From the sequence record OR228459.1: a stretch of 64,000 nucleotides of DNA; one strand, given 5' to 3'. The notes under the pieces were generated by a model. It saw only the letters and a program-made list of their open reading frames with translations, ran no database searches and was not told where the DNA came from. Positions 18,321-35,536 of the stretch are shown here, one piece after another. The stretch comes from Klebsiella phage fENko-Kae01. Both the position numbers and the translations under genes were made by a program. Numbering within the stretch: the first letter of the stretch is position 1; each line of letters begins with the position of its first letter.

Positions 18321-18334
18321 TAGAAAAAAAGCAG

Positions 18335-18363
18335 TTGACGTTTAATACGTTGGCTGCTATAAT
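18335..18363 (+). promoter_or_regulatory. sigma70-type promoter TTGACG-N17-TATAAT
   Basis: Consensus spacing. Confidence 0.6.
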
Positions 18364-19786: not shown

Positions 19787-19845
19787 TTGACACAAATTTT
19801 AAATATTAGTATTATAGATGCCAGCAACAAAGCTGGCATTTTTTT
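19787..19845 (+). promoter_or_regulatory. promoter (TTGACA-N17-TATTAT) immediately followed by GC hairpin + U7 (terminator/attenuator-like leader)
   Basis: GCCAGC-AACAAA-GCTGGC + T7 located at predicted +1..+25 of the transcript feeding the sigma-factor gene. Confidence 0.5.
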
Positions 19846-21163: not shown

Positions 21164-21200
21164 AAAGGGTTGACTTCGGTCAGCCCTTTTGTTATTATAT
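21164..21200 (+). promoter_or_regulatory. UUCG-tetraloop hairpin terminator fused to promoter (TTGACT inside stem, 17 bp, TATTAT)
   Basis: AAAGGGTTGAC-TTCG-GTCAGCCC-TTTT-G-TTATTATAT; family of 9 copies. Confidence 0.65.
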
Positions 21201-21229
21201 GTCTACACCAACTGATGAGGATTAATTAA

Positions 21230-21556
21230 ATGAAACATTCGACTTTTGACAAACAAGAAATTATGTCTCTTTTGTTCAACAATGAACAAGTCTATATCGA
21301 GCTACCATTCAATGACCATAGTGGTATGATGATCTCACGTACCATCTCTCACTTCCACGGATATAAGAAGCAACCAAATATTGAAGTTCGTTTTTATGAA
21401 AAAGACGGGAATTATATGTCATATGCAACAGAATACTTCAATGTATATAATATTGAAAACGCCACTGATGCAGTTCTTTCTCGCTATTACAGTGAAGATC
21501 CATTAGTGTATTCAAAATATAGTACTGATTTCGAATCAACCTTTGTGAAAGAATAA
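21230..21556 (+). CDS. hypothetical protein
   Basis: 108 aa. Confidence 0.55.
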   Translation: MKHSTFDKQEIMSLLFNNEQVYIELPFNDHSGMMISRTISHFHGYKKQPNIEVRFYEKDGNYMSYATEYFNVYNIENATDAVLSRYYSEDPLVYSKYSTDFESTFVKE

Positions 21557-21576
21557 CACGACAAGGAATCATAATA

Positions 21577-21852
21577 ATGCAAGTAATAAAAATTGAATAT
21601 GAAGTAACTGACCATAAACTTGGTGGCAATTATCATTTCACTGAAATTGCAGCGAATGTTGATGCGGCGGTCACATACTTAGAAAAGAACTTCACTGGAC
21701 TAGTAGATGTTACTACTAATATGGTAGATTATAGTGATAATCCACCAGTAAGAGTATACCATCATACAAAAGAACGTGTAGATGAAGACGGTGATTGGGA
21801 TTACCCACGCGAAACAAAAATCGAATTATACTTTGAAGAGGTTATCGAATAA
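21577..21852 (+). CDS. hypothetical protein
   Basis: 91 aa, AAGGAATCATAATAATG RBS. Confidence 0.5.
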   Translation: MQVIKIEYEVTDHKLGGNYHFTEIAANVDAAVTYLEKNFTGLVDVTTNMVDYSDNPPVRVYHHTKERVDEDGDWDYPRETKIELYFEEVIE

Positions 21853-22139
21853 TGAAAGGTATCAAAGAAGATGACCAATTACGTTCAGTACTAGAAAAAG
21901 ATTATAATGATATTGTAAACTTTAAGTACTGTGGTGATGAGTACAAAAAGAATACAAAAATACGTGATTTCTTGAATAATATCTTTACAGCTAATATCAA
22001 AGCGGTGTATACTGTCAATTCCAAGACTAACATTGATAATGGATGGGATTGGAGCGGGGAAATCGTTATCATAGTTAATGGTAAAGGTAAAGTAATTATC
22101 ATGTCTAATTCTGAATGGTCTTCTATCCGCTTACTTTAA
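21852..22139 (+). CDS. hypothetical protein
   Basis: TAATG overlap. Confidence 0.5.
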   Translation: MKGIKEDDQLRSVLEKDYNDIVNFKYCGDEYKKNTKIRDFLNNIFTANIKAVYTVNSKTNIDNGWDWSGEIVIIVNGKGKVIIMSNSEWSSIRLL

Positions 22140-22148
22140 GGAATTAAA

Positions 22149-22460
22149 ATGAAAGGTACTACAATCATAATCAGCATTTTATTTGTATTATTCGGAATTG
22201 GTGTTAAAACTGTTGTACAGAAAGCAATGGTTCAAGATTTAAATTGTGAAGTGCGTGTAATCTACGATGATTATCGTATTAATGTAAACACCGGAACATT
22301 CCAGTCAGATGAACTTGATAAAATTGTTGAATATGGTGGTGCTATGCTCGGTGAACACATCAATGATTTGAAGAAAGTCAATAAAGGTTTGTATGCTGGA
22401 TCAGGTAAGAAACATGATGATGTATTGGCATCGGTCGTAACATGTAAAAAAGTAGAATAA
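22149..22460 (+). CDS. hypothetical protein (signal/TM N-terminus)
   Basis: 103 aa. Confidence 0.5.
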   Translation: MKGTTIIISILFVLFGIGVKTVVQKAMVQDLNCEVRVIYDDYRINVNTGTFQSDELDKIVEYGGAMLGEHINDLKKVNKGLYAGSGKKHDDVLASVVTCKKVE

Positions 22461-22467
22461 ATTAAAG

Positions 22468-22506
22468 CAAAGGGTTGACTTCGGTCAGCCCTTTTGTTAT
22501 TATATC
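22468..22506 (+). promoter_or_regulatory. UUCG-hairpin terminator/promoter element (copy 2)
   Basis: Identical core AAAGGGTTGACTTCGGTCAGCCCTTTTGTTATTATAT. Confidence 0.65.
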
Positions 22507-22535
22507 TACAACGAAACGAATATTAAGAGGAAATC

Positions 22536-22961
22536 ATGTCAGCCCTTAAAACTAAAGATGGCATTGCACCCGGTAAAATTATGTACCACGTATACGGTAC
22601 AGTACTTGCAAAAAGAAGACATAAACTTACTGAAGATAATATCGACGTTCACATTGAACGTTGTATTATTACGTCTTTCCCGAAATATTATCATTACAGC
22701 TTAAGTACTCGTACTGATAGTTTGTTCGTTGATTGTATTATGTTTGGGACGATGGGAGAGTTTCGGAGTGGGTTTAGTCTTAAAGATTGTGGTATTGGTA
22801 ATAAAAAGAATTACAACCTAAATCGGCTGTTCACTTCAATTGGTGATGCACGTGAATTCATTGGTGAAATCATGGAGGGAAAGTTCTTTGACGTTGAAGA
22901 ACAAATGTTGTATAATGAAGAAAAATACTATTATGACATTTGTAATAGCATTACACTTTAA
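22536..22961 (+). CDS. hypothetical protein
   Basis: 141 aa, AAGAGGAAATCATG RBS. Confidence 0.55.
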   Translation: MSALKTKDGIAPGKIMYHVYGTVLAKRRHKLTEDNIDVHIERCIITSFPKYYHYSLSTRTDSLFVDCIMFGTMGEFRSGFSLKDCGIGNKKNYNLNRLFTSIGDAREFIGEIMEGKFFDVEEQMLYNEEKYYYDICNSITL

Positions 22962-22970
22962 GGAGAAATT

Positions 22971-23264
22971 ATGAAATATGATGTTATCATTCGTACTGAA
23001 CAGACTATCCCATCTTTGAAGTACATCCATAAAGATGACCAATTTGATGAAGAACGTAGTCAAGAATTAGAACGCAGTATTCTACGTATTTTCAATAAGG
23101 CATATCGCCCACATGGTATCGAATTAGTACCACATGAGGTTGAGTACTTGCACTTTACTATTCGTACTCTAAACTATGATGGTGAATGTAAGACGGATGA
23201 ACTACGTATAGCGTATCATTTCTTCACTGGTATCTGTGAAGCCTTAGAACTTAAAGTTGCATAA
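22971..23264 (+). CDS. hypothetical protein
   Basis: 97 aa, AAGGAGAAATTATG RBS. Confidence 0.5.
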   Translation: MKYDVIIRTEQTIPSLKYIHKDDQFDEERSQELERSILRIFNKAYRPHGIELVPHEVEYLHFTIRTLNYDGECKTDELRIAYHFFTGICEALELKVA

Positions 23265-23286
23265 ACCAGATAAATGAGGATTTAAT

Positions 23287-23616
23287 ATGCCTATTCCATT
23301 ATTCCATGAAACAAATACATTCACCGTATATAAAAAGAATGAAGAACTAAAGAGAATCAACTTCACTGGTCACAAAGTTGGTTTGTATTATAAATTATAT
23401 TCAGTACTAAAAAAGAAGCATGACTACCATTTACAAACATCAACAGTGCGTGATATTACCGGACGTGTATTAATGAATGGTAATTTCATAGATATCTTAA
23501 TGCGGTTGATTGAAGAACTTAAGAAAAAATATAAGTACTCAATCATTAGTTACAAAGGGAAGGTATTGAAGTCTATCATTGGTATGATGACGAAGAAGGT
23601 GTTGCCTCACAACTAA
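23287..23616 (+). CDS. hypothetical protein
   Basis: 109 aa, GAGGATTTAATATG RBS. Confidence 0.5.
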   Translation: MPIPLFHETNTFTVYKKNEELKRINFTGHKVGLYYKLYSVLKKKHDYHLQTSTVRDITGRVLMNGNFIDILMRLIEELKKKYKYSIISYKGKVLKSIIGMMTKKVLPHN

Positions 23617-23900
23617 TGAATTTAAAAGAGAAGTATACTAAAAGTGGTGATCCACGTTTATTCCGCAAAGTACAAGTACTTGACAACGAATCCCAACGTA
23701 GTACGTATGAAAGTCTTGATGATCTAATTGATATGTTCCGAACTACCAAAGATGCTAAAGAACCAGAATTTGGTGTATACCTTAGCTTTGAAGAAGTACT
23801 AGAAGATATGCGTCCATTTATTGTTAATGGTTCAGACAAAGAAAAGATTGAAGCTAAAGCAATCTTGGCTTATGTTGCTGCTAAACTAGCGGAGAAATAG
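23616..23900 (+). CDS. hypothetical protein
   Basis: ATGA overlap, 94 aa. Confidence 0.5.
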   Translation: MNLKEKYTKSGDPRLFRKVQVLDNESQRSTYESLDDLIDMFRTTKDAKEPEFGVYLSFEEVLEDMRPFIVNGSDKEKIEAKAILAYVAAKLAEK

Positions 23901-23932
23901 TTGGGACAAACATGAATTAATGTCCTATAATA
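23900..23932 (+). promoter_or_regulatory. class-G promoter (TTGGGACAAA ... TGTCCTATAAT)
   Basis: Fourth copy; drives GC-rich island transcript. Confidence 0.55.
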
Positions 23933-24033
23933 AGATATAAACCGATTACGGGGAGTCCAATGGACTCCCTGATGTTGTTATTCCTGATCCACTTGAAAAT
24001 GTAAAGGGCAGATGAGTTGATAATCGCAACGAA

Positions 24034-24327
24034 GTGCAGATGAAACCCGCTCGGCGGCAATGCGGCACTATAAACGAGAACGTAAGGCACGTAACCTCGC
24101 TAGATAGACATATGAGAGTACTCACCAGATTGCTAAGGGAGTTTATTAAAGGGTTAGTCACACCCATAATAAACACATTCTATCGTGGACTGTATCGCGT
24201 TAGAATGAGTGTAGTAGGACTACGACCGTTGCATAGAACAGAGATAGGGAGAAACAGGGCAACTCGCTTCCGTGTCATTGACAATTCTCTATACAGTAAA
24301 GCCGATGCCACCAGCGTCAAGTTTTAA
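24034..24327 (+). CDS. possible Arg-rich small basic protein (or non-coding structured RNA region)
   Basis: 97-aa ORF in ~50% GC island, no good RBS, 100-nt structured leader. Confidence 0.3.
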   Translation: MQMKPARRQCGTINENVRHVTSLDRHMRVLTRLLREFIKGLVTPIINTFYRGLYRVRMSVVGLRPLHRTEIGRNRATRFRVIDNSLYSKADATSVKF

Positions 24328-24475
24328 TTCTTCCTCCCCAGCGGGGGGATGAAATTGCCTCTACAAACCTCGTCAATATAAAAGGTTGACATAATCAAAT
24401 AAATGAATTACACTGAACGAAGTGAAGAGTAATTCCGTTGCTATCGAAGATAGTAACGTTTGATAGGAGTTCAAA

Positions 24476-25342
24476 ATGATCCACCTAAAATTATCAATTC
24501 CAGATATGGATTATGCCAATCTCAATCCTGATTTTTATCCATACATTGACTGGAATAAATTGCGAGATACAGAAATCTCATTAATGCCGAAAGATGTAAT
24601 TCTATATGCACCAATTCGTAAAATCATTTCCCATTTAGGTACACAAGAAAAATCAGGTACAAGTGATATCCAAGTACTAGAAGTAATCGCACGTTGCTTT
24701 AATGAATTGAATGAAAAAAAACATTTATTTTCACGCGATGTAGATTTGTTCAACTTCATTAATGAATTTTGTAGTTTTGAATTTCGTAAGAAATATCATA
24801 GACAATTACTTGCTAAACGCCACCCAGAACATACATATCAGTTTGTCTGTACATTGGTCGCAGATTATATTGTTGGTTTGGAGTTTTTAGATAAACTACC
24901 TTACCATAAAATGACAATTGATGTATTCAACAAACTAAAACTGGAAGATATGAGAAAATTAATCTTCAATACTAATTACATTCAAAATACATTAACATAT
25001 CAAGTACCGATGGATGAAGCCGCTTTTGCATTACCATCGTCTGATTTAGAAAAATTAAAAATGCCAGTTCCCCGAAATGTTATGTTTACAAAAACACTAC
25101 AGAAATTATGCACGAGTGAACAGTTTTCGGTAGTTGTAAAACAACAAGAAGAAATTAATTGGGATGAAATGGTTAACTTATACCATAAATGTGAAATAGT
25201 ATACAGTGACTTATTTCTAGTTTGGAAAAAGTTTATTGAAGAAAGTAATGAGGATTATATTCGCGATTCTGAAGAATTTGTAAGAGAATCTTTCAACAAC
25301 AACTTTGATAGAAGTTACTTTAATATTAAGGATTACTTATGA
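24476..25342 (+). CDS. hypothetical protein
   Basis: 288 aa, TAGGAGTTCAAAATG RBS. Confidence 0.6.
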   Translation: MIHLKLSIPDMDYANLNPDFYPYIDWNKLRDTEISLMPKDVILYAPIRKIISHLGTQEKSGTSDIQVLEVIARCFNELNEKKHLFSRDVDLFNFINEFCSFEFRKKYHRQLLAKRHPEHTYQFVCTLVADYIVGLEFLDKLPYHKMTIDVFNKLKLEDMRKLIFNTNYIQNTLTYQVPMDEAAFALPSSDLEKLKMPVPRNVMFTKTLQKLCTSEQFSVVVKQQEEINWDEMVNLYHKCEIVYSDLFLVWKKFIEESNEDYIRDSEEFVRESFNNNFDRSYFNIKDYL

Positions 25343-25635
25343 TTCTAAACATTTTTGTACTAATGATTGTTTTCATCCCTTTTTGGACTTCACTAGTCTA
25401 TAAACACTCAACTTGGATTACTAAAGTAATGGTGTTCATTTGGTGTTCGTTGGTTGCATTTGTATTGTTCATGGTACGGGATGCTTCTATATCACTTGAA
25501 CAGTACGGATATCCAATTGATTGGTTCCCAATAACGTTAATATGTTCTTGGTTTATATTTGGACAATTTATTGGTTTAAAGGCAGTATTATCTGAATTAC
25601 CCCGGTACAATTCTCTAAATAGTACTAATGATTAA
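25339..25635 (+). CDS. hypothetical multi-TM membrane protein
   Basis: ATGA overlap; hydrophobic. Confidence 0.5.
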   Translation: MILNIFVLMIVFIPFWTSLVYKHSTWITKVMVFIWCSLVAFVLFMVRDASISLEQYGYPIDWFPITLICSWFIFGQFIGLKAVLSELPRYNSLNSTND

Positions 25636-25655
25636 ATCTTTTTAGGAGAATTTAT

Positions 25656-26036
25656 ATGGCACACGACCAATGGGATCGCAAAGATCCGTCACATGATGTA
25701 GATGCATCGAAACTAGACGACAAACACAAAACCAAGTACTTTGATGAATTGGGGCTATTGAAGCCAGATCAATCTCTTTCGCATGATCGTCCTTCACGTG
25801 AGAAGTCTTTCAGTCTAGAATCATTAGGCCATGAGCTACGTGAAGTTTTCAGTAATCACCCAATCTATGTGCGTGACATTATTGAAAAACTCAAGGTAAC
25901 ACCAAAAGAACACTTTAAAGCCACAGTACACGCCGCTTTCAAAGCACTACACGAAGCACGTGGCAGTGAGCGTAAGATCCATGCTGCAATCATTGACGCG
26001 ATTGAGTCAGTGAAGCACAAATTTAGTAAGAAATAA
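25656..26036 (+). CDS. hypothetical protein
   Basis: 126 aa, TAGGAGAATTTATATG RBS. Confidence 0.55.
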   Translation: MAHDQWDRKDPSHDVDASKLDDKHKTKYFDELGLLKPDQSLSHDRPSREKSFSLESLGHELREVFSNHPIYVRDIIEKLKVTPKEHFKATVHAAFKALHEARGSERKIHAAIIDAIESVKHKFSKK

Positions 26037-26040
26037 CACA

Positions 26041-26078
26041 AAAGGGTTGACGAGAGTCAGCCCTTTTTCGTATAATAA
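26041..26078 (+). promoter_or_regulatory. GNRA-type hairpin terminator/promoter element (AAAGGGTTGAC-GAGA-GTCAGCCC-T5 ... TATAAT)
   Basis: Same stem as UUCG family with different tetraloop. Confidence 0.6.
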
Positions 26079-26111
26079 GAGTATCGAAACAAAACTATTA
26101 AGGAAATCATA

Positions 26112-27071
26112 ATGCCACATTTCACTTTTGCAGAACCAACACAAACCAGTACTAAAAAGACAAAGGTTAAAACCGACAATGCTGCTGGTTTAATCTACAC
26201 TGCAATGAAGAAATCCAAGGTTCGTAATCCTAAATTTAAACCAGCATTTGTTGCTAGTTTACCACGTCAGCACAACTACTCTAAAACAGTACTTGTACTG
26301 TTGAATATGTATAAATCATCGGGTTCTTTGAAATGTTCCTGCTGTAATTCATCTGAAGCATACTTTGTAATACATGTCGAATGTGGTCGTGCAACATTTC
26401 GTGCTATGGTAGATACTAATAGTGGTCGTCAAGTCCTGACCGTTGACCATGATGTACTGAAATCGTTAGGCGGTAAAGATGAAGAACAAAACTACAATCC
26501 GTTGTGCTATAAATGCAATCAGATTCGTGGTTCTCGTTTCGCTGGATTTAAAGAATTCAAAGAATGGTATGATTCACAAGAAGTAATTGATACCATCAGT
26601 GGTTTACCATCAGCAAACTTCTGTCATATAGATTTTAAAAGTAATCTTAACAATAATATCCATTGTGAAACCATTAATGGTGCAACTGCGTTGCCACCAA
26701 ATATGATGAATGAACTTAAGAAAGAAATGCGTCGTGACCAATATGACATTTTCTCTAAACTATCGATAAAGATTTGGTTGAAGATGGATCGTGATAGTGC
26801 TAATACTATCTTAAATGAATTAGTACTCGAACGTATACAAAAACGTCACAACAAGAAACATATTAAATTACAAAATCATAACTTTTTTAACTACCAGAAG
26901 AATATTACTGATCATCGTAAAATAAAGATGCATATCGAAGAACAATTACGTGCACAGGTTCGCAAGTTACGTAATACACCAGTACATGTCAGTACTGAAG
27001 AAGTTAAAAAAGTCAATACTGCATTTAGTTTTAAAAATATTTGGTCAGCCTTGAAAAATATCTTTGCCTAA
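26112..27071 (+). CDS. HNH endonuclease-domain protein
   Basis: VDHDVLKSLGG...NYNPLCYKCNQIRG HNH motif; Cys-rich N-terminal region. Confidence 0.65.
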   Translation: MPHFTFAEPTQTSTKKTKVKTDNAAGLIYTAMKKSKVRNPKFKPAFVASLPRQHNYSKTVLVLLNMYKSSGSLKCSCCNSSEAYFVIHVECGRATFRAMVDTNSGRQVLTVDHDVLKSLGGKDEEQNYNPLCYKCNQIRGSRFAGFKEFKEWYDSQEVIDTISGLPSANFCHIDFKSNLNNNIHCETINGATALPPNMMNELKKEMRRDQYDIFSKLSIKIWLKMDRDSANTILNELVLERIQKRHNKKHIKLQNHNFFNYQKNITDHRKIKMHIEEQLRAQVRKLRNTPVHVSTEEVKKVNTAFSFKNIWSALKNIFA

Positions 27072-27074
27072 GTA

Positions 27075-27108
27075 TTGACACGATCAGGGAGTATGTTATA
27101 ATACTCCC
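27075..27108 (+). promoter_or_regulatory. promoter TTGACA-N16-TGTTATAAT with -10 in loop of GGGAGTAT/ATACTCCC hairpin
   Basis: Near-identical copy at 28381. Confidence 0.6.
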
Positions 27109-27131
27109 ATAGAAAATAAAGAGGACATATC

Positions 27132-27458
27132 ATGAATTATCAACTAGTACTTGCTGCATTAAATGAACTTAAATCTGGTCATATTGAAGACACCAGTAAA
27201 GGTATTTGTTTCAATCTAGCATGGAAACTTGATATGGATCGTAACAATCCATTGAACATGAGTACTCATTTCATTGAGGAAGCATTTACTTCAATTTTTG
27301 GTTCAGTACTGACTTCTCCAGTTGAAGGTGATATTATTTCGTATTTGAACAACAAAAATAAATGGGATAAAGAAACAGAAATGGGCTTGCGTCGTTTTGA
27401 TTTACTTGATAAAATGATTGCATACGCTGAAGAACAACTCAACAAAGAGGAAGCATAA
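27132..27458 (+). CDS. hypothetical protein
   Basis: 108 aa, AAGAGGACATATCATG RBS. Confidence 0.55.
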   Translation: MNYQLVLAALNELKSGHIEDTSKGICFNLAWKLDMDRNNPLNMSTHFIEEAFTSIFGSVLTSPVEGDIISYLNNKNKWDKETEMGLRRFDLLDKMIAYAEEQLNKEEA

Positions 27459-27459
27459 G

Positions 27460-27624
27460 ATGAAATACTTAATCGCATTTGCACTGATTATTGGTTTGGC
27501 TGGTGGTTTCTGGATTGGTAAAGCAACTTATCAGGTCAAACTCACTGCTGGTTCTTGTCTCGATGCAACTACTCAAAGCATTGGAGAAAGTATCGATAAC
27601 TTTATTAGCAACATTAAGGGGTAA
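27460..27624 (+). CDS. small single-TM protein
   Basis: ATG (MKYLIAFALIIG...) after AGAGGAAG RBS. Confidence 0.45.
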   Translation: MKYLIAFALIIGLAGGFWIGKATYQVKLTAGSCLDATTQSIGESIDNFISNIKG

Positions 27625-27627
27625 CAT

Positions 27628-27915
27628 ATGATTCAATACTTCCAAACTCGTCGTATTTCTGACATGACTGAAGGCTGTGGTCACATGGTTAATGACCGTG
27701 CTTTTACGGAATGGCAATATGCAGCAGATTATATTAACTCCCAACCGGGCGTAATGGGTCGTCGTGTGAAATGGACAGAAGAAAAATATGCTGGTGATTG
27801 GGATATCCAAACCATTAATGTATATGATTCTCCATTTGATCCAGAAGCAGAAGCACGTGCAAACGCACTTGCTAAACTAACACCACAAGAACGCAAACTA
27901 TTGGGGCTTGAATAA
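27628..27915 (+). CDS. hypothetical protein
   Basis: 95 aa, AAGGGGTAACATATG RBS. Confidence 0.55.
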   Translation: MIQYFQTRRISDMTEGCGHMVNDRAFTEWQYAADYINSQPGVMGRRVKWTEEKYAGDWDIQTINVYDSPFDPEAEARANALAKLTPQERKLLGLE

Positions 27916-28127
27916 TGAGTGTAGAACTTACTACCTTCAATGAAGGTAATAAAACTTACTTAGCTGTCGGTTTCATTGAAGATCGTGGTTTTGATGATTC
28001 TAATGTATGTCAGTACCGTTGTGTTGATGCTCAAGGTTATGAGTTTTACACTGATGATCACGGTGAAGCAATGGAATTTATCAGTAATGGTCTAACACAG
28101 CCTAAGAACACATGGACGCTTCCATGA
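27915..28127 (+). CDS. hypothetical protein
   Basis: TAATG overlap. Confidence 0.5.
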   Translation: MSVELTTFNEGNKTYLAVGFIEDRGFDDSNVCQYRCVDAQGYEFYTDDHGEAMEFISNGLTQPKNTWTLP

Positions 28128-28384
28128 AGTACATAATGATTGTACTGGCTATGCTTTTCCTAAGTGCATGTGATGATGAACCAGTGATCGATGCCAAGTA
28201 TTTGGCTATGCATGAGTGCGTCTACACTGGTAAATCATTTCAAACTGATGAAAAGACGTGGATTTCTAACGGGCGTGGTGGTTCATGGAAAGATGTAACT
28301 AATCGTTACTATGTCTATGATTGTCCACCGGGAAAGCAAAAAACTTTATCAACTGTTAGGCTTGTTATTGATACTGAGCATTGA
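28112..28384 (+). CDS. putative lipoprotein
   Basis: Signal peptide with lipobox LSAC (MKYIMIVLAMLFLSACDD). Confidence 0.55.
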   Translation: MDASMKYIMIVLAMLFLSACDDEPVIDAKYLAMHECVYTGKSFQTDEKTWISNGRGGSWKDVTNRYYVYDCPPGKQKTLSTVRLVIDTEH

Positions 28385-28414
28385 CAACATTCGGGAGTAT
28401 GTTATAATACTCCC
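28381..28414 (+). promoter_or_regulatory. promoter TTGACA-N16-TGTTATAAT with -10 in hairpin loop (copy 2)
   Basis: GGGAGTATGTTATAATACTCCC identical to the 27087 copy. Confidence 0.6.
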
Positions 28415-28437
28415 ATATTAAGAAAACAGGAGCTACA

Positions 28438-28596
28438 ATGGAAAATATTTACGTTAATGCATTTAATGGTTTAGTTCGTAAGTTCGTTGGTGGTAAAGGT
28501 TTCAATTTGCAAGATGATGGAACATGGGTTAAAACCGGCATATCTGAGAAATTGATTAAAAATCTTCCTTACTATAAGTTACAGGAAAACAAATAA
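28438..28596 (+). CDS. small hypothetical protein (52 aa)
   Basis: ATG after AACAGGAG RBS directly downstream of promoter; below ORF-track cutoff. Confidence 0.4.
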   Translation: MENIYVNAFNGLVRKFVGGKGFNLQDDGTWVKTGISEKLIKNLPYYKLQENK

Positions 28597-28886
28597 TGAA
28601 AGTAGATATCCATTATACTAGTTTTAATATGCGTAAAGATACTGAAAGTATTGTGGCTACTTCTGGTGCAATTGCATTTTTTAATGATCACGACATTCCT
28701 TATGTTCTTGAAGAACATGATAGGTTCGGCGGCGGTAAGAAAGAAATGATAACTTGGCATGAAAGTGCAACACCAATCGAACTTGTTGATTTCTCTATTG
28801 ATGTTATGCATGAATACGCTCAACGCTATAATCTCATTTTCCAGATTGGTAAAGAAACCGTAGTTATTAAATTCGATGAAAAATAA
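28596..28886 (+). CDS. hypothetical protein
   Basis: TAATG overlap, 96 aa. Confidence 0.5.
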   Translation: MKVDIHYTSFNMRKDTESIVATSGAIAFFNDHDIPYVLEEHDRFGGGKKEMITWHESATPIELVDFSIDVMHEYAQRYNLIFQIGKETVVIKFDEK

Positions 28887-28895
28887 GGAATTCTT

Positions 28896-29543
28896 ATGTT
28901 AAAAGATCCTAACTTTGAACCAATGGATTTATTTTTTAAGAATAAAGATCACGGTTTGTATTTCTCTTACATTATGGTTAAGAGTCCTATTGATGGACGT
29001 ATTATCCCTGCCATGAGTGGATACACTGATCCTTCTCATGAACGCTGGGAAGGTGAAAAGAAATCTATTAAGGTATTTTTAACAGCACGTCATGCACCGG
29101 GAATCTATTTGGGTTTTCCAATGGAAGACATGCTCGCATTGAGTCCCACCCGCCATATTGAAAGTGTTGGAAATTTCGACTTGAGTACTGGTATGTACTA
29201 TACATATGAAGAAATGAAAGAACAATTCAATCGTGGTTATCATTTACAGAATGAACCATTAAGTACTGGAAAACCAGCAGCACATATGAATTCAATAGCC
29301 AATCCATATGGGTTAGCTGATAACATCTCTCAAGTACTAAAATATTACCGGAAGGTTGTGACTAATCCCAATGTTAATGTCGTCCTGCATGTACAGCAGC
29401 ACGATAAGACTAAAAATACAGTGGGGATGCGTTGGCATAAATCCGGTAAGTATATCGGTAATCATAATCCAAAGCATGAATATATTAATGATGAAGAAGG
29501 GTTTGATCGCTTTATTTCTTACCATTTCTATGTTATAGAGTAG
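28896..29543 (+). CDS. hypothetical protein
   Basis: 215 aa, AAGGAATTCTTATG RBS. Confidence 0.6.
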   Translation: MLKDPNFEPMDLFFKNKDHGLYFSYIMVKSPIDGRIIPAMSGYTDPSHERWEGEKKSIKVFLTARHAPGIYLGFPMEDMLALSPTRHIESVGNFDLSTGMYYTYEEMKEQFNRGYHLQNEPLSTGKPAAHMNSIANPYGLADNISQVLKYYRKVVTNPNVNVVLHVQQHDKTKNTVGMRWHKSGKYIGNHNPKHEYINDEEGFDRFISYHFYVIE

Positions 29544-29549
29544 GTGTGT

Positions 29550-29753
29550 ATGGGTAAATTTCTAGTAATTGGATTTGTAATAGGATTTCTAGTAATATTA
29601 GGTATTTTTGGGGCTGTCTTTATGATTACATATTGGGATTCATTGTATCCTGAATGGGATCGCATTGGAACAGATGAAATCGCGAACACCTGTTTAATAT
29701 CATCATTTGGTGGACTAATAGGTATGTTTATAACTCTTTGGATAATTGATTAA
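29550..29753 (+). CDS. small membrane protein
   Basis: ATG after GAGTAGGTG; two TM segments. Confidence 0.45.
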   Translation: MGKFLVIGFVIGFLVILGIFGAVFMITYWDSLYPEWDRIGTDEIANTCLISSFGGLIGMFITLWIID

Positions 29754-30133
29754 TGCATAAAATAATTATTGTAGTACTTCTAATGTTTGGTGTATCATAT
29801 TCTGCATTAGCTGAAAAGATTCTTTGTGTTGATGTGAAGCATAAAGCTCACGTTATTGAATTTGTCACCGATAGTATTGACTTTGTGTATCTAGATGGTG
29901 TAGAATATCAACGTCAACCACATATGGCAAAAATAAGTACTGAGTACTTTACAAGTGATAAGAAAATGTTAACATTTTTCTTTGATCCAAATCCAGAAAA
30001 ACGTGATTGGTTTAATATTTTGTTAACATCAATCCCAAAGAAAAATGAAAAAGTACTTGAAGATTTCTTCGCATTGTGCGATAATGTAAACCTTCTCGAA
30101 GAAGAACAACAACCTCAACTCGTTAAACAATAA
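29753..30133 (+). CDS. secreted/periplasmic protein
   Basis: Signal peptide MHKIIIVVLLMFGVSYSALA. Confidence 0.55.
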   Translation: MHKIIIVVLLMFGVSYSALAEKILCVDVKHKAHVIEFVTDSIDFVYLDGVEYQRQPHMAKISTEYFTSDKKMLTFFFDPNPEKRDWFNILLTSIPKKNEKVLEDFFALCDNVNLLEEEQQPQLVKQ

Positions 30134-30142
30134 GGAAACTAC

Positions 30143-30475
30143 ATGTTTATTCTATCTCTAGGTTATATTATTTTTGTCGCTACTATGATTATTTCTATCT
30201 TCCGTGTTCACGTTAATAAAGAAGATTTTGATGTAATTGGCTCTTATTTCAATAATACCCCAGAACACAGTAATTTCGCAAAATATGTATATTACTGTCT
30301 TTATGCTTGGGTGATTGCTTGGGGACTATCTCTTATTCTACCAGTACTTGCTATCGTATGTATGGTAATTAATCTAGTACTTTACATTGCAGCTTGGATT
30401 TGGATTTACGAATGTTATAAAGATGGTCACATGGTACGTTGGTTCAACGACATTAAAGCTAAATTAAATCCATAA
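30143..30475 (+). CDS. multi-TM membrane protein
   Basis: Hydrophobic 110 aa. Confidence 0.5.
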   Translation: MFILSLGYIIFVATMIISIFRVHVNKEDFDVIGSYFNNTPEHSNFAKYVYYCLYAWVIAWGLSLILPVLAIVCMVINLVLYIAAWIWIYECYKDGHMVRWFNDIKAKLNP

Positions 30476-30482
30476 GATGAAA

Positions 30483-30522
30483 AAAAGGGTTGACGAAAGT
30501 CAGCCCTTTTTGTTATAATAAT
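30483..30522 (+). promoter_or_regulatory. GAAA-tetraloop hairpin terminator/promoter element
   Basis: AAAAAAGGGTTGAC-GAAA-GTCAGCCC-T5-G-TTATAAT. Confidence 0.6.
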
Positions 30523-30545
30523 TTCATCAACTAAAGGAGAACTAT

Positions 30546-30968
30546 ATGCCTCGTGCTTCATTTAAAGTAACTGATTGTGATGTAAATCTTATTAGGCGTG
30601 ATATGTTTGAAACAAAAAAATCCTATGAATATTTTCTCATTGGTTTCCACGCAGCACGTGAATTGCAGATGTTGAAAGATTCTGGAAATATTATCATGGA
30701 TTCTGGAACCCCACTTGAATCTAATTGTGATTTTTATATTGCATTTGACCAGTGGAAAGATGAACTATCAATGCCTCGGCTTGGGCCATCGGTAGATGGT
30801 AAGAGTATGACTATGTGGTTTGGTGCAACAATGGGTAACATTCCAAATACCACTTTTGTATATAAACGCGAATTGAAAGATGCGTTTGGTAAGATCACAT
30901 ATGTAGTACCAACAAATCAAAAAAAATTTGAAATAAAAGAGTTGACTGACTACAATTCTATGGTATAA
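30546..30968 (+). CDS. hypothetical protein
   Basis: 140 aa, AAAGGAGAACTATATG RBS. Confidence 0.55.
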   Translation: MPRASFKVTDCDVNLIRRDMFETKKSYEYFLIGFHAARELQMLKDSGNIIMDSGTPLESNCDFYIAFDQWKDELSMPRLGPSVDGKSMTMWFGATMGNIPNTTFVYKRELKDAFGKITYVVPTNQKKFEIKELTDYNSMV

Positions 30969-30998
30969 TAGTAGTACTTAATTGGAGAGAACTCTAAA

Positions 30999-31229
30999 AT
31001 GTTCGATGAAGATATGTCGGAATTACCACCAGTACTAGAAGAAACGCTTGAAGAAATTAACAAAATGGGTAAGAAAGATCTACGTGAGTTTGCCTGTAGT
31101 ATTCTTTTAAACTTAGTAGATCTTCAAGAAAAGCATTTAGAACTTCAACGTCGTTACAATCGTAATCGTGCAGACTATCTTTCACGTTGCACCAGTTCGG
31201 GTGGGATTACTATCCCTCCACGTTTTTAA
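30999..31229 (+). CDS. hypothetical protein
   Basis: 76 aa, GGAGAGAACTCTAAAATG RBS. Confidence 0.5.
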   Translation: MFDEDMSELPPVLEETLEEINKMGKKDLREFACSILLNLVDLQEKHLELQRRYNRNRADYLSRCTSSGGITIPPRF

Positions 31230-31239
31230 GGAGTTGTAT

Positions 31240-31569
31240 ATGGTTATTGTACTTAATTCTATTTCTCAAATACTTTGGTTTTTTGTCTCGGTATTCGGAT
31301 TAGTTTCTTTGATCCTTATGTTCTTTAAAAAGAAATCATGGCTAAGACGTATTAATATGGACGAATGGGATTCTCCTTTTTTGGCGTGGGTTTCATTTAT
31401 TGGGGGTATGTTCATTTTTGGTATGCATTTAGTGATGGATGAAAGTGGTGTTTCATTGAATGGTTTTAGTGTCGGTTTTATGATTTCAATAATGCTTATT
31501 GGGTTTTGTTTAGTAGAGTTTTTATTTTCATTAATCTCAGATTGGCGTAAAAATATACCGGAGTCCTAA
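31240..31569 (+). CDS. multi-TM membrane protein
   Basis: ATG after AGGAG; hydrophobic. Confidence 0.5.
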   Translation: MVIVLNSISQILWFFVSVFGLVSLILMFFKKKSWLRRINMDEWDSPFLAWVSFIGGMFIFGMHLVMDESGVSLNGFSVGFMISIMLIGFCLVEFLFSLISDWRKNIPES

Positions 31570-31902
31570 ATGAAACTAGCATTGCAAAATATTTTACTAC
31601 TAATCATCACTGTAAGTATTGCATTTGGCTTTTATTATGTGTATAATAATGCTATGCAAAAACGTTTGGAAAAGCCATACCATTGTTATCTGATTGTTAA
31701 ACCGAAAAATGATTATGGAATAACTGAACGTTTCAATACAACCAGAAAAGAATTGAGTACTCTCTCTGTTGGACAGGTATATCATGGTTACACCGTATCA
31801 AGTATCAATTCAACAATGAGTAAAAGTGTGTACACAATTCGCTACAATCCTGATAATAATTCTGAACTAATTGAAGGTTCAGTGTCATGTTTTGAAGATT
31901 AG
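31570..31902 (+). CDS. protein with N-terminal TM anchor
   Basis: TAAATG junction. Confidence 0.5.
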   Translation: MKLALQNILLLIITVSIAFGFYYVYNNAMQKRLEKPYHCYLIVKPKNDYGITERFNTTRKELSTLSVGQVYHGYTVSSINSTMSKSVYTIRYNPDNNSELIEGSVSCFED

Positions 31903-31910
31903 AGGTTTAA

Positions 31911-32228
31911 ATGAATTTCAGTACTACAACGAAGTCGGGTATGATTCAATACGCTAAAATCGACCCAACTAAAAACATCAACGTCTTAGAAGTCGAGCAG
32001 AATATTATTGAAAAATTTAATAAGAAATGGAAAAATAAAAATATTGAAGTTCAAAAATATTCTGAACATTTACCATTTGCTTTTGTAATTTCTGCTACAA
32101 CAACATATAGTACTGTAACTGGTGTTAAAGAACAACATCCAGAATATAGTGAGTTTGTTCTATGTGCTGGTTATCTCGATGGTTGTGCAGACAATTTTGG
32201 GTTGAAGTGTACACGTTCTGGATTGTAA
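31911..32228 (+). CDS. hypothetical protein
   Basis: 105 aa. Confidence 0.5.
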   Translation: MNFSTTTKSGMIQYAKIDPTKNINVLEVEQNIIEKFNKKWKNKNIEVQKYSEHLPFAFVISATTTYSTVTGVKEQHPEYSEFVLCAGYLDGCADNFGLKCTRSGL

Positions 32229-32232
32229 TGAA

Positions 32233-32272
32233 AAAAGGGATTGACTTCGGTCATCCCTTTTAATATAATAAA
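32233..32272 (+). promoter_or_regulatory. UUCG-hairpin terminator/promoter element (variant GGGATTGAC-TTCG-GTCATCCC, TATAAT)
   Basis: Compensatory T/A change keeps stem paired. Confidence 0.6.
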
Positions 32273-32281
32273 GGAAATAAT

Positions 32282-32464
32282 ATGAGAACTTGTCTAACAT
32301 TTCTTATTATTTTTGTATTAAGTTGCACCTTTATGTATGGCATACCTATATATAAAGAATGGAATGAACTTGGTAAGTATGTTGATAGTTTGGACACACT
32401 AAACAAGTTTGCTCCTGTATTAATTTCTGCATGTATTGCAACTTTTTTTTACATTAATGAATGA
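32282..32464 (+). CDS. small TM protein
   Basis: 60 aa, AAGGAAATAATATG RBS. Confidence 0.4.
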   Translation: MRTCLTFLIIFVLSCTFMYGIPIYKEWNELGKYVDSLDTLNKFAPVLISACIATFFYINE

Positions 32465-32485
32465 AATCTTTTTGGAGATTAATTA

Positions 32486-32809
32486 ATGACTATGAATAAA
32501 TTAATATTTCTTGTAATTCTTACTATTGTTGTAGTTGGCTTATCCTCCCAATCACATGCTGATGAATTGGACGAACCAATCTGTAAAGTACGGGTATGTA
32601 ATAAGATTGAACGCTTCTCTTTAGACTTGTTTGCTCATGTGAAAGATTCAATGGGTGAAGTATGTGACACTATTATTATTCCACAATCACAATTAGGTCA
32701 AGGTGTAGGTCAAGTACTGAACTCCGAATCAAGATGGTATCAAGGTTCTAGTATTAACCCTACTAAGAAATCAGTTACTCGTATTCAAGAAATTATTCGT
32801 TGCAAATAG
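32486..32809 (+). CDS. secreted protein
   Basis: Signal peptide MTMNKLIFLVILTIVVVGLSSQSHA. Confidence 0.5.
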   Translation: MTMNKLIFLVILTIVVVGLSSQSHADELDEPICKVRVCNKIERFSLDLFAHVKDSMGEVCDTIIIPQSQLGQGVGQVLNSESRWYQGSSINPTKKSVTRIQEIIRCK

Positions 32810-32823
32810 TATGTGAGGAAAGT

Positions 32824-33030
32824 ATGATTAAAGAATTTCCAGATGGTGTAAGTGTTCGTGTTCTAAAAGAACTAATCAAAGATTGGCCTGAAGTAAGAGA
32901 AAATGGCGAAGATACGATGGTATACTTGGGTGATGGAAATGGCTACAGTAACCAAGCAATTGAGGTTAGTACTATTGATCAAGATGAACATGGAGTAAGT
33001 GATTTATTCATTGCTCATAATTCCAAATAA
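32824..33030 (+). CDS. hypothetical protein
   Basis: ATG after GAGGAAAG. Confidence 0.45.
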   Translation: MIKEFPDGVSVRVLKELIKDWPEVRENGEDTMVYLGDGNGYSNQAIEVSTIDQDEHGVSDLFIAHNSK

Positions 33031-33047
33031 AACAATTGGAGGAAGAA

Positions 33048-33242
33048 GTGACCAGTACTATTCATTCTACTTTAACGTTTATTGTGTCACAAATAATCCT
33101 TGTGTGTTTGATGCTGTTAGGGTATAATGTATATCAAAGTACAGGAAAGTTCTGGCACTTCTTAGCATTAGGAATGGTAGCCGTCTGTACTGCATTATTG
33201 TTTATTGAGTTGATGAACAGATACATCAAGGTGAAGCAATGA
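33048..33242 (+). CDS. small TM protein (GTG start)
   Basis: GTG 4 nt after GGAGGAAG; ORF-track start is TTG. Confidence 0.4.
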   Translation: MTSTIHSTLTFIVSQIILVCLMLLGYNVYQSTGKFWHFLALGMVAVCTALLFIELMNRYIKVKQ

Positions 33243-33880
33243 CTAAACAAGAAATCTTTAAGCACATTATTACGATCCTACGTCCCGAAACCCTCCGTCG
33301 CCAAATGGAGTTTGATATTGTTCAAGCAGAACGTATCATCAAAGAGAAAGTACAAGAAGTTGGCCTGACCTTTATTGGTATTGGGATGTATGCTGTCGTA
33401 GTCGAACATCCTGACTATCCTGAACGTGTATTCAAAGTAACTACTTCTCGCTGGGATGGTTATCGTGAATATGTAAAGTACTGTATAGCTAACAAGGGTA
33501 AAAAGTTTCTACCTGTTATCCATAGTGCTAATGAGAAAGGAAACTTCGGATGGTATGAACTTGATAAGTACTACCCCATCCTAGACCCAAACGGTGGCTA
33601 TGAGGCGTTCGTTAGTATCTATGTAGAGGATATGTATGCCTATGCTCATGCGGGGCAGTACAGTGATTCTGTTAAGGATTTAGAGGGTAGACCAGAAGCT
33701 ATTGAGATTTATAAACGTGCAAAAGAGATTGCTGATTTATACAAAAATAGCTTTACATTGGATATTCACACTGGTAATATAATGCTTAGTAAAGATGGTG
33801 AAGTAATTATTACTGATCCACTAGCGGCTGATGTACGCAGGGAAATCCCTGTATCAGAAGCTGATCCCGAATTCGATTAG
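33239..33880 (+). CDS. protein-kinase-fold protein (eukaryotic-like Ser/Thr kinase signature)
   Basis: Gly-loop IGIGMYAVVV, VFKV lysine, catalytic loop LDIHTGNIML (D-x4-N), IITDP metal-binding Asp. Confidence 0.6.
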   Translation: MTKQEIFKHIITILRPETLRRQMEFDIVQAERIIKEKVQEVGLTFIGIGMYAVVVEHPDYPERVFKVTTSRWDGYREYVKYCIANKGKKFLPVIHSANEKGNFGWYELDKYYPILDPNGGYEAFVSIYVEDMYAYAHAGQYSDSVKDLEGRPEAIEIYKRAKEIADLYKNSFTLDIHTGNIMLSKDGEVIITDPLAADVRREIPVSEADPEFD

Positions 33881-33888
33881 GAGCTATT

Positions 33889-34059
33889 ATGAACTCAAAT
33901 AACCTCATTCTGAAAGAAGCAATTCATACTCTGTGTGTTCTTCGTTGTCAAAATCTTCAGATGATTTATGAAGGAAACGATAACACTTCAAAAGAAAAAG
34001 AAATCGAAGCACAGGAGAAATTCATCAAAGAGTTAATTGATGAACATGTGCCTAACTAA
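33889..34059 (+). CDS. small hypothetical protein (56 aa)
   Basis: ATG after TAGGAGCTATT; below ORF-track cutoff. Confidence 0.35.
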   Translation: MNSNNLILKEAIHTLCVLRCQNLQMIYEGNDNTSKEKEIEAQEKFIKELIDEHVPN

Positions 34060-34069
34060 TGGTGAATGT

Positions 34070-34648
34070 ATGAGAAAAATAGTTCTTGCACTTGCATTAA
34101 CACTATTCAGTACTACAGCTTTTAGTACTCAATACCAATGCAGTGTATCAAGAAGTACAGGACAATTCACAAAAGGTATCATCACTGAACGTGGTGATGC
34201 CGTATCCTTTACGACCTTTGACAATAAAGAAACTTATACGTCTGGTTCCTTATTTGAACTACAGACGAATAACATCATGCTAAAGCATAAAGCAAAGGAT
34301 AACGTAGCTTTCTGTACTAACGTCATGACTACTGCTACTGAAGATAACTTTGGTAATAAGTCTTTCAAGTTCAAAAATACTGGTAGTGGTGAAAGTTTAA
34401 CCTTCTATGATTGTGAAGAGTTTCAGCAACCAGAAGGGGAAGAAGCATGTGATATACCCCTCCCAGAACCATCTGTATGCCACGCTACTGAGCCTAAAAA
34501 ACTAGCTGATAAGCTAGATGGTAATGGTGACAAACCCCCTGAGAAGAAGTCTGGTAAGCCACATAAACCTAAGAATCCATTCAACAAAGCTAACAAACCG
34601 AAGCCAAAATCGAAGATGCCAACACCAGATAATATGTGTCCTACTTAA
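34070..34648 (+). CDS. secreted Pro/Lys-rich protein
   Basis: Signal peptide MRKIVLALALTLFSTTAFS; C-terminal PEKKSGKPHKPKNPFNKANKPKPKSK. Confidence 0.55.
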   Translation: MRKIVLALALTLFSTTAFSTQYQCSVSRSTGQFTKGIITERGDAVSFTTFDNKETYTSGSLFELQTNNIMLKHKAKDNVAFCTNVMTTATEDNFGNKSFKFKNTGSGESLTFYDCEEFQQPEGEEACDIPLPEPSVCHATEPKKLADKLDGNGDKPPEKKSGKPHKPKNPFNKANKPKPKSKMPTPDNMCPT

Positions 34649-34663
34649 AAATAAAGGGTTGAC

Positions 34664-34702
34664 TTTGGTCATCCCTTTTGATATTATATATGCATACCAA
34701 CA
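34664..34702 (+). promoter_or_regulatory. hairpin terminator/promoter element (GGGTTGAC-TTTG-GTCATCCC, TATTAT)
   Basis: Family member. Confidence 0.6.
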
Positions 34703-34716
34703 AAGGGGATTACGTG

Positions 34717-34887
34717 ATGAAAATCGAACTAACTACTCATGATAAAAAACCAGCATTCAAAATCCTTACTGGTTATCGTGCTGGTAACTACATTGAAAGT
34801 AAAGAAGGTTGTGTTCAACACTTTCAAAGTACTGAATCAGCTATCAAATGGGCTGAAGAAATTGGTTATAAAATAATTATTAAGTGA
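34717..34887 (+). CDS. hypothetical protein
   Basis: ATG after AAAGGGGA. Confidence 0.5.
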   Translation: MKIELTTHDKKPAFKILTGYRAGNYIESKEGCVQHFQSTESAIKWAEEIGYKIIIK

Positions 34888-34894
34888 GGATAAT

Positions 34895-35122
34895 ATGAAA
34901 ATTGCATACGTAGGTAGCCATAAATTTATTACACGTAATGAACGTCTGTACTTTATTTGTGAGCGTACAAAAGACGCTGCTGTACAGGCTGAATGGGCTG
35001 ATGATGTATTGAAACGTGCTAACGTACAATTTGATAATGGTCGTTGGTCACATGAAGCTGCTGGTGAAATACTAGAGAAAGCGGAAGATGTACTTTCTAA
35101 CTATCTTGTTGTTACTGCTTAA
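34895..35122 (+). CDS. hypothetical protein
   Basis: 75 aa, GAGGATAATATG RBS. Confidence 0.5.
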   Translation: MKIAYVGSHKFITRNERLYFICERTKDAAVQAEWADDVLKRANVQFDNGRWSHEAAGEILEKAEDVLSNYLVVTA

Positions 35123-35133
35123 GAGGAAATATT

Positions 35134-35328
35134 ATGAAACTTAAACGTTATGAACGCAATCGTATTATGGATGCACTGTACCGTGAAGAAACTTCAATCA
35201 AAGCGGTGAAACAACATTTTGTTTTGGGATTCCGTATGCCAGCACGTAAAGCAAAGCAGACCGCAGTTGACCTTTTGAATGAAGGAATTGAGTACTGGAA
35301 CTCTGATGTGATGGATGACATTTACTGA
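35134..35328 (+). CDS. hypothetical protein
   Basis: 64 aa, AGAGGAAATATTATG RBS. Confidence 0.5.
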   Translation: MKLKRYERNRIMDALYREETSIKAVKQHFVLGFRMPARKAKQTAVDLLNEGIEYWNSDVMDDIY

Positions 35329-35483
35329 TGAGTGGATTTATATTCACGGTAGTAGTAACATGCATTGTTTGTGCAATATCTTACTATTATCTTCATATAC
35401 ATCCAGAAGGTGCATTTTCTAAAAAGAAATCGCCATCAAAACCAGTCGTGGATGAAGATTATGTAAATAATTTTTGGAAGTAG
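35328..35483 (+). CDS. small TM protein (51 aa)
   Basis: ATGA overlap; below ORF-track cutoff. Confidence 0.35.
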   Translation: MSGFIFTVVVTCIVCAISYYYLHIHPEGAFSKKKSPSKPVVDEDYVNNFWK

Positions 35484-35497
35484 ACATTTATCTGTAT

Positions 35498-35536
35498 AAA
35501 AGGGTTGACTTAGGTCAGCCTTTTTTGCTATTATAT
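35498..35536 (+). promoter_or_regulatory. hairpin terminator/promoter element (GGGTTGAC-TTAG-GTCAGCC, TATTAT)
   Basis: Family member. Confidence 0.6.

Follow-up and report, generated by a model that had tools for sequence, protein, structure and literature searches.

Eight copies of a short intergenic element, designated E1 to E8, are carried on the + strand of a 64,000-nucleotide stretch (the window) of Klebsiella phage fENko-Kae01 (OR228459.1). In each copy, a hairpin followed by a run of T holds in its 5′ arm the −35 box of a promoter, the −10 hexamer of which lies just downstream. Each copy is, with a probability of about 80%, a composite early regulatory cassette of the type known as PeSL (promoter early stem-loop), here in a RaK2-like jumbo phage. 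The case is built on the anatomy of the copies, the stability predicted for their fold, a phage-specific coupling of hairpin and −10, the conservation of their positions and homology breakpoints that fall at copies. By analogy with lacZ tests on the PeSLs of RB49 and phi1, the copies would terminate and also initiate transcription. Judged by its sequence, the cassette is not new in kind: it appears to be a PeSL, a design known in another phage lineage.

The window was searched with the degenerate pattern GGGNTTGACNNNNGTCANCCC, allowing up to 2 mismatches, and the chance level was taken from dinucleotide shuffles. Eight + strand matches were obtained (21166, 22471, 26043, 30486, 32237, 34655, 35501 and 61438), against a chance expectation of 0.01. 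The recurring hairpin, T-run and −10 reported in an earlier sequence-only reading are thus real. That reading had counted nine copies, of which eight form the sequence family, and had placed one of them at 34664; its start is at 34653. The related palindrome that it listed at 17836 follows the same plan, but its arms (TGACCGCC/GGCGGTCA) form a hairpin unlike that of E1 to E8, and a third design at 18330 had been missed. The copy count for this phage covers the 64-kb window; related genomes carry 6–12 exact cores each.

The layout of the element is AAAGGG-TTGAC-N4-GTCAGCCC-T4-6, followed by the −10 hexamer. All the copies show the same order: the stop codon of an upstream same-strand open reading frame (ORF), an A-run, the hairpin with TTGAC in its 5′ arm (GGGTTGAC-N4-GTCAGCCC), 4–6 T and the −10. 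The stop codon precedes the −35 by 9–21 nt in every copy, and the A-run of 3–7 abuts the stem, giving the AT-rich tract upstream of the −35 that is typical of PeSLs. The proposal of a −35 within the stem and a −10 at a 17–18 bp spacer was upheld in 8/8 copies, with TTGAC(T/G) as −35 and TATTAT or TATAAT as −10, a promoter of PeSL type. An extended −10 (TGn directly before the hexamer) is present in 6/8. A ribosome-binding site and ATG follow 26–35 nt past the −10 in 6/8, the Shine-Dalgarno/start arrangement of PeSLs; the exceptions are E5, where the ATG lies at 12 nt, and E8, which has a 136 nt non-coding leader. The loops are TTCG (four copies), GAGA, GAAA, TTTG and TTAG. Stable UUCG/GNRA tetraloops, claimed for the family as a whole, are therefore found in 6/8, the TTTG and TTAG copies falling outside.

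E1 (21164–21198) reads AAAGGGTTGAC-TTCG-GTCAGCCC-TTTT-G-T-TATTAT, with the hairpin at 21164–21189, the −35 at 21170–21175 and the −10 at 21193–21198; its RNA has a minimum free energy (MFE) of −16.6 kcal/mol (z −5.3), and phage Munch carries a terminator annotation at the orthologous site. The same annotation is found in Munch for E2 (22469–22503; standard core with TTCG loop, −35 at 22475, spacer 17, −10 at 22498–22503, MFE −18.5 kcal/mol) and for E3 (26040–26076; GAGA loop, −35 TTGACG at 26047, spacer 18, −10 TATAAT at 26071–26076, MFE −18.2 kcal/mol). E4 (30480–30519) has a GAAA loop, a −35 at 30490, a spacer of 18 and TATAAT at 30514–30519, and an MFE of −19.4 kcal/mol. E5 (32231–32269) is a variant, GGGATTGAC-TTCG-GTCATCCC, with one bulged U and a −10 TATAAT (32264–32269) that is not preceded by TGn; its MFE is −14.6 kcal/mol, Munch carries no terminator annotation there, and it is the weakest promoter case among the copies. 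E6 (34653–34687; MFE −12.7 kcal/mol) combines a TTTG loop with GTCATCCC, an internal U-U mismatch and TATTAT at 34682–34687; Munch and phage PHA46 carry GTCAGCCC with a TTAG loop at this site. E7 (35498–35534; MFE −16.8 kcal/mol) has a TTAG loop, GTCAGCCT, a spacer of 18 and TATTAT, and lies upstream of a P-loop NTPase gene. E8 (61432–61470; MFE −16.3 kcal/mol) is GGGGTTGAC-TTCG-GTCGCCCC with a bulged U and TATTAT at 61465–61470, and would drive the non-coding leader and no ORF.

The other two designs also lie on the + strand. The second (17836–17867) reads TTGACCGCC-TA-GGCGGTCA followed by TTG-T-TATAAT at a spacer of 17 (MFE −15.0 kcal/mol); the third (18330–18363), GCAGTTGACGT-TTAAT-ACGTTGGCTGC, runs straight into TATAAT (MFE −16.2 kcal/mol).

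The window shares 99% identity with Salmonella phage SE_PL and ~97–99% with phages 7t3, PHA46 and Munch. These four close relatives are jumbo phages of 337–350 kb from the RaK2/GAP32/CBB group, classed just as Caudoviricetes. Seven of the eight copies lie within a 14-kb run of same-strand small ORFs, 38/40 of which are labelled 'hypothetical' in SE_PL, a setting that again agrees with that of PeSLs. A phage sigma factor, a protein kinase and the P-loop NTPase are encoded in the same region, which looks like an early, host-takeover region.

As + strand RNA, E1 to E8 fold with MFEs of −12.7 to −19.4 kcal/mol and z scores of −3.2 to −7.1, and at most 1 in 200 shuffles matched the observed energy, as expected of the stable stem-loop of a PeSL. 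When four copies were folded on both strands, the antisense RNA was weaker by 1–5 kcal/mol (4–5 for the standard form), because a conserved U·G pair, between the first T of TTGAC and the G of GTCAG, turns into C·A. The base facing this T is G (wobble) in ~100 copies and A in ~12 among L003–L061 (compared loci are given as L numbers) and the window. The wobble gives strand specificity to hairpin and −35 alike. With a Watson-Crick A at this site, the hairpin would become symmetric and the opposite strand would also read TTGAC.

Selection on the structure had been argued from compensatory changes in the stems. An extra base pair with a bulged U does maintain the stability of E5 and E8, which can be called bulge-compensated; E6 has a single uncompensated G-to-U change, and the events are too few for covariation. 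The changes in the window are thus weak evidence for selection on structure. Better evidence comes from two other sources. The TTGAC lies within the 5′ arm of a strong hairpin in 10/29 near-consensus + strand promoters of the window, and these ten use three unrelated stems (GGGTTGAC/GTCAGCCC, TTGACCGCC/GGCGGTCA and GCAGTTGACGT/ACGTTGGCTGC). Other phages show the outer-stem variants AGG/CCT (9), GGG/CCT (4), TGG/CCA and TAC/GTA, with pairing retained in AGG/CCT, TGG/CCA and TAC/GTA. A covariation test among the close relatives was dropped, their ~97.5% identity being too high, and distant contigs were taken instead. A change of the 3′ arm from GTCAGCCC to GTCACGGG would break the hairpin while leaving −35 and −10 untouched.

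The hairpins have the features of intrinsic terminators, namely a GC-rich hairpin followed by a U-rich tract, on the transcribed strand and downstream of a gene. In the GenBank record of Munch, 6 of the 7 clustered copies are labelled 'terminator' (TransTerm-style features). They share a GC-rich stem of 8–12 bp, a stable tetraloop and a U-run with the bacterial intrinsic terminators that have UUCG/GNRA tetraloops, and the same 24-mer was found 39 times among bacterial genomes and metagenome-assembled genomes. The promoter half sets the phage element apart. IMG/VR was scanned for GGGTTGAC-N4-GTCAGCCCTTTT, a pattern that sets nothing past the T-run, and gave 96 matches, 82 of them distinct; a TAnnnT hexamer at a 16–18 bp spacer followed in 80/82. 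In bacterial and archaeal genomes (~596 Gb), the same scan found 38 distinct copies, of which just 7 had the hexamer at that spacing (Fisher p = 1e-19). In the other 31/38 a correctly spaced −10 is absent, and T-runs in the bacterial copies are longer, most copies resembling plain terminators. A −10 therefore does not come with the hairpin as such; it is in the phage element that the two are coupled. UNCG or GNRA loops were found in 61/96 of the IMG/VR matches (TTCG alone in 40), where ~5% would be expected. Since this preference replaces the consensus A at position 6 of the −35, a trade-off favouring RNA stability over the −35 consensus is visible in the loops.

Composite elements of this kind were described in T4-like phages (Arbiol et al. 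2010, PMC2839356; Comeau, Arbiol and Krisch 2014, PMC4122927). A PeSL is made up of a strong sigma70-like early promoter with an AT-rich tract upstream, a stem-loop that acts as terminator, and a Shine-Dalgarno sequence with ATG; PeSLs sit among ORFans and serve as recombination points (PMC2839356, PMC4122927). Five subclasses are known, including those in which the stem-loop overlaps the −35 or the −10; in lacZ fusions, an RB49 stem-loop was about as effective as rrnB T1 in lowering expression, and ~13,000 Miller units were measured for a PeSL promoter (PMC2839356). The consensus published for phages nt-1 and KVP40, A3-4 G3-loop-C3 T3-4 with TTGYVH-N17-TAWWAT (PMC4122927), matches the window element, and both are intergenic, followed by Shine-Dalgarno and ATG, and clustered among small ORFans. 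The KVP40-like phage ValKK3 has the identical core GGGTTGACTTCGGTCAGCCCTTTT...TATTAT after rIIB, and VH7D has 6 exact copies. There are also differences. The nt-1/KVP40 elements belong to Straboviridae, whereas the window element is found in RaK2-like jumbo phages of ~350 kb; its −35 always lies within the 5′ arm; and its association with indels shows up only in comparisons with distant relatives and is absent from the group of four close ones. The RB49/phi1 PeSLs share the composite of strong sigma70-like early promoter and stem-loop terminator, but their stems are poly-G/poly-C and variably placed. The commonest stem-loop positions in RB49, between the boxes or over the −10, are also represented in the window by stem-loops over the −10/start (27075–27108, 28381–28414, 58648–58680 and 60958–60992; TTGACA-N6-GGGAGTATGTTATAATACTCCC or GGGGATATGATACAATATCCCC); the present finding concerns the class that overlaps the −35. 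The genome described here is RaK2-like and not that of a T4-like myovirus, the hosts in which PeSLs were defined, a restriction that is a taxonomic limit of the original description and not a mechanistic one.

Within the RaK2-like clade, RpoD-like early promoters and terminators have been predicted for CBB and, as cited there, for GAP32 (PMC5259590). Table S8 of the CBB paper lists GGGTTGACTTCGGTCAGCCC three times as terminators (ARNold), and its MEME promoter table contains composite sites such as AAAAAGGAGTTGACAACAGTTGGCTCCTTTGCTATACT, e.g. Porf_41 (PMC5259590). Promoters and terminators are thus given in separate tables, and no statement that one element does both jobs was found in the text searched for this clade. 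The RaK2 paper says nothing about promoters or terminators, the PA5oct RNA-seq and Pseudomonas cappable-seq papers hold no statement about overlapping terminator/promoters, and a full-text search with the motif strings returned nothing relevant.

The 37-mer of the element was found in just 30 of 50,697 phage records. One group consists of RaK2-like jumbo phages of Klebsiella, Salmonella, Cronobacter, Erwinia and Xanthomonas, and a second of KVP40-like vibriophages (Straboviridae). The third group is formed by Brochothrix A9-like Herelleviridae (Klumppvirus A9, with a Gram-positive host). Brochothrix phage A9 itself (NC_015253, L102; compare also L037 and L046) carries AAGGGTTGACTTCGGTCAGCCCTTTTGTTATTATA at 1501–1535, identical to E1 in 35/35 bases, between the DNA polymerase gene and gp142. 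Horizontal spread, as opposed to convergence, seems an unlikely origin for this near-identical cassette of 35–37 nt in three unrelated lineages, and convergence is possible because nearly every base is functionally constrained. If spread were nevertheless the case, the cassette would be a portable 'universal linker', and gene cassettes carrying it could pass from one phage family to another already insulated and equipped for expression.

The copies hardly vary among the four close relatives. In distant RaK2-like contigs, whose flanking proteins are 26–88% identical, the core is identical at orthologous junctions (E1 and E2 in L060; E2 in L055; E4 in L021; E7 in L021, L033 and L061; E8 in L003). 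An initial impression of large indels starting at E1, from 51% megablast coverage in 7t3, Munch and PHA46, was dropped, as blastn showed the genomes to be collinear at ~97.5% with a single 560-bp indel.

Homology breakpoints at copies lend some weight to the view that recombination is the primary role, the copies being linkers or parts of mobile mini-circle cassettes that shuffle ORFans, with regulation secondary. In three distant relatives (L021, L033 and L061) the alignment upstream of E7 collapses exactly at AAAGGGTTGAC, and the downstream NTPase gene aligns throughout. Extra cassettes with a copy on both sides lie between orthologous flanks: L021 has an additional gene of ~720 bp between the flanks of E6, with one copy at either end, and in L040 the genes flanking E4 are ~2 kb apart with two copies in between. 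In L022 the upstream gene and element of E3 are followed by a different gene. These breakpoints are individual cases against distant relatives. The loop, 3′ arm and spacer cores of E6 and E7 also look exchanged between the window and 7t3 (L063) on one side and Munch (L001) and PHA46 (L062) on the other, a reading that needs 3 substitutions rather than 6. Gene conversion, or excision and re-insertion, between copies sharing ~55 nt may account for this pattern, which is suggestive only. Recombination between PeSL copies has been demonstrated in RB49 and phi1, and mini-circles are documented in RB49 (PMC2839356).

The four close relatives show a single indel, and the repeat that bounds it is of another promoter-hairpin type, TTGACA-N6-GGGAGTATGTTATAATACTCCC. 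In PHA46, two copies of this repeat enclose a 555-bp gene, where the window has one copy and no gene; 7t3, judging by its identical locus layout, has the same gene, and Munch annotates it as Munch_505. In SE_PL the matching stretch exceeds the query by ~600 bp, as would be expected if it had the same insertion. The difference is a clean repeat-mediated indel, and it too can be cited in favour of recombination; at no copy of the GGGTTGAC type, however, is there an indel in the four close relatives. Homology alone would suffice for recombination, which leaves the tetraloop bias, the exact spacing of −35 and −10 and the T-run unexplained. As the primary role recombination is thus improbable, and it is best seen as a consequence of, or an addition to, the regulatory role.

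It is quite improbable that the inverted repeat is mainly a double-stranded DNA operator, where a phage or host regulator would bind as a dimer to TTGAC..GTCA across the −35 and shut off early promoters, the RNA hairpin being a by-product. A palindrome over the −35 is the classic layout of a repressor site, early promoters need to be silenced later in infection, and the phage's own sigma factor is encoded nearby. Against this, the stem is asymmetric in a way that is tolerated in RNA but at odds with DNA symmetry, T·G outnumbering T-A by ~100 copies to ~12. The enrichment of UNCG/GNRA loops is an RNA property, a T-run always follows the stem, and the three hairpins in one genome have different half-sites. 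An operator role is compatible with roles as terminator and promoter, and these are not mutually exclusive. That the hairpins are ordinary intrinsic terminators only, with TTGAC and TAnnAT incidental and no start, as the plain terminator annotations in Munch and CBB and the bacterial copies of hairpin and T-run without −10 might suggest, is highly improbable in view of the −10 at 16–18 bp in phage but not bacterial copies, the TGn in 6/8 with ribosome-binding site and ATG 26–35 nt on, the three unrelated hairpins all built around TTGAC, and the presence of composite sites (Porf_41) in the CBB promoter table.

The preferred reading, a terminator and a promoter in one cassette, would work as follows. 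For polymerase arriving from the upstream early gene, the GGGUUGAC-tetraloop-GUCAGCCC hairpin with UUUU(G)UU would act as an intrinsic terminator, the transcript being released ~7–9 nt beyond the stem, at a point within the −10 region. As double-stranded DNA, the same stretch would be a strong promoter of the host sigma70 type, with an A-rich UP-like tract, the −35 TTGACN in the 5′ arm, a spacer of 17–18 bp whose T-run ends in the TG of the extended −10, and TATTAT or TATAAT as −10. Transcription would start ~7 nt downstream of the −10. With a start past the −10, the new transcripts would be without the hairpin and hence escape termination by their own cassette. The outcome would be a chain of short, insulated and individually strong early transcription units. 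As ~40–55 bp recur between genes, the copies could double as homology patches through which cassettes are gained, lost or swapped. The original suggestion that each element insulates and re-initiates transcription agrees with every computational test made here and, by analogy, with the reporter assays published for RB49/phi1 PeSLs (PMC2839356).

Several points weigh against this reading. The U-tract is short (4–6 U) and then interrupted by G or A, and the upstream A-run can pair with it; for these reasons a simple terminator scan flagged just 2/7 copies in range, and termination may be partial in efficiency. The −10 of E5 ends just 12 nt before the annotated ATG (32264–32284), so that transcripts from its promoter would be nearly leaderless and without a Shine-Dalgarno sequence, or else E5 would be mainly a terminator. 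The U-U mismatch in the stem of E6 is uncompensated, the position being G in Munch and PHA46. The functional assays cited concern RB49/phi1 PeSLs of different sequence, and a literature search yielded no RNA-seq, transcription start site or 3′-end data for this phage or its close relatives.

The leader behind E8 (61478–61545, + strand) is non-coding and conserved, and contains CTAA-CCCATAGGGTGC at 61497–61508. It is one instance of a promoter-proximal RNA motif, …CTAA-CCCAYAGGGTGC-GGA…, which has 7 copies in the window, all within 53–64 kb and one of them directly behind E8 (first C at 53371, 59647 and 61497 on the + strand, and at 63395, 59726, 55702 and 53458 on the − strand). Its consensus is CTAA-CCC-AYA-GGGTGC-GGAnnTGTATCTATAG, located ~20–30 nt past the −10 of consensus sigma70 promoters with or without a −35 hairpin. 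In the sequences compared, 47 copies were found, including some in L003, L004, L010, L020, L022, L028, L030, L036, L038 and L041. A subfamily has a covarying 4-bp hairpin just 5′ of the motif, with a purine-rich hexaloop (GCGAAA, AGAACA or GAGAAA). RNAalifold on all 35 leader-motif copies returned an invariant CCC/GGG stem only, the 5′ hairpin being confined to the subfamily. Two copies are followed by a GGGGAG...CTCCCC-T terminator. Rfam, searched at gathering thresholds over the whole window and at E-value thresholds over 53–64 kb, gave tRNAs and chance matches only and none for the motif, and a description of it was not found in the literature searched. We speculate that the motif is a small RNA or leader element, possibly with a nut/put-like role in antitermination. 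Such a role would suit a terminator-rich genome.

Two pairs of motif copies lie face to face, with overlapping transcription starts and a Fur-box-like palindrome in the overlap. Palindromes of this type (e.g. GAGAATGATAATCATTTAC) are present at 53144–53168, ~53410–53430, 54711–54729 and 59678–59696, and matches to GATAATGATAATCATTATC with up to 3 mismatches number 5 against 0.11 expected. Two of them sit exactly in the overlap of the face-to-face promoter pairs 53315+/53514− and ~59590+/59776−. The IMG/VR locus L003 has the same layout of promoters and palindrome.

Other features of the window were also recorded. A consensus promoter, TTGACA-17-TATTAT, lies at 19787–19841 before the sigma-factor gene (19865–20833). 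At about its +1 there is a terminator-like hairpin with 7 T (AGATGCCAGC...GCTGGCATTTTTTT), annotated as a terminator in Munch, and this leader hairpin may be an attenuator. In a second promoter-like class, CTTGC(T/A)T replaces TTGACA 16–17 bp before TATAAT (61530–61565, 61773–61803 and many sites within 53–61 kb). Many promoters have the palindrome AGTACT within them or a short way upstream (...AGTACTTGACA..., ...AGTACTGTATAAT). The CTTGC(T/A)T/AGTACT sites may belong to a middle-promoter class or be the target of a regulator. Five tRNA genes (Pro-TGG, Lys-TTT, Glu-TTC, Gly-TCC and Leu-TAA) are found at the left end of the window (183–414, 3529–3604 and 6813–6895).

The principle of the composite cassette was already published in 2010 and 2014, and current understanding of it is therefore unchanged. 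What the copies add is an extension of the PeSL concept beyond T4-like phages. As a compact natural part of ~40 bp, combining terminator and promoter, the element may also be of use in engineering. That copies flank inserted cassettes and coincide with homology breakpoints is relevant to the shuffling of ORFan genes. If the copies act as proposed, sites annotated as 'terminator' alone in RaK2-like genomes would also be promoters, and this would account for the division of the early region in a ~350-kb jumbo phage into short units, each strongly expressed and insulated from the others.

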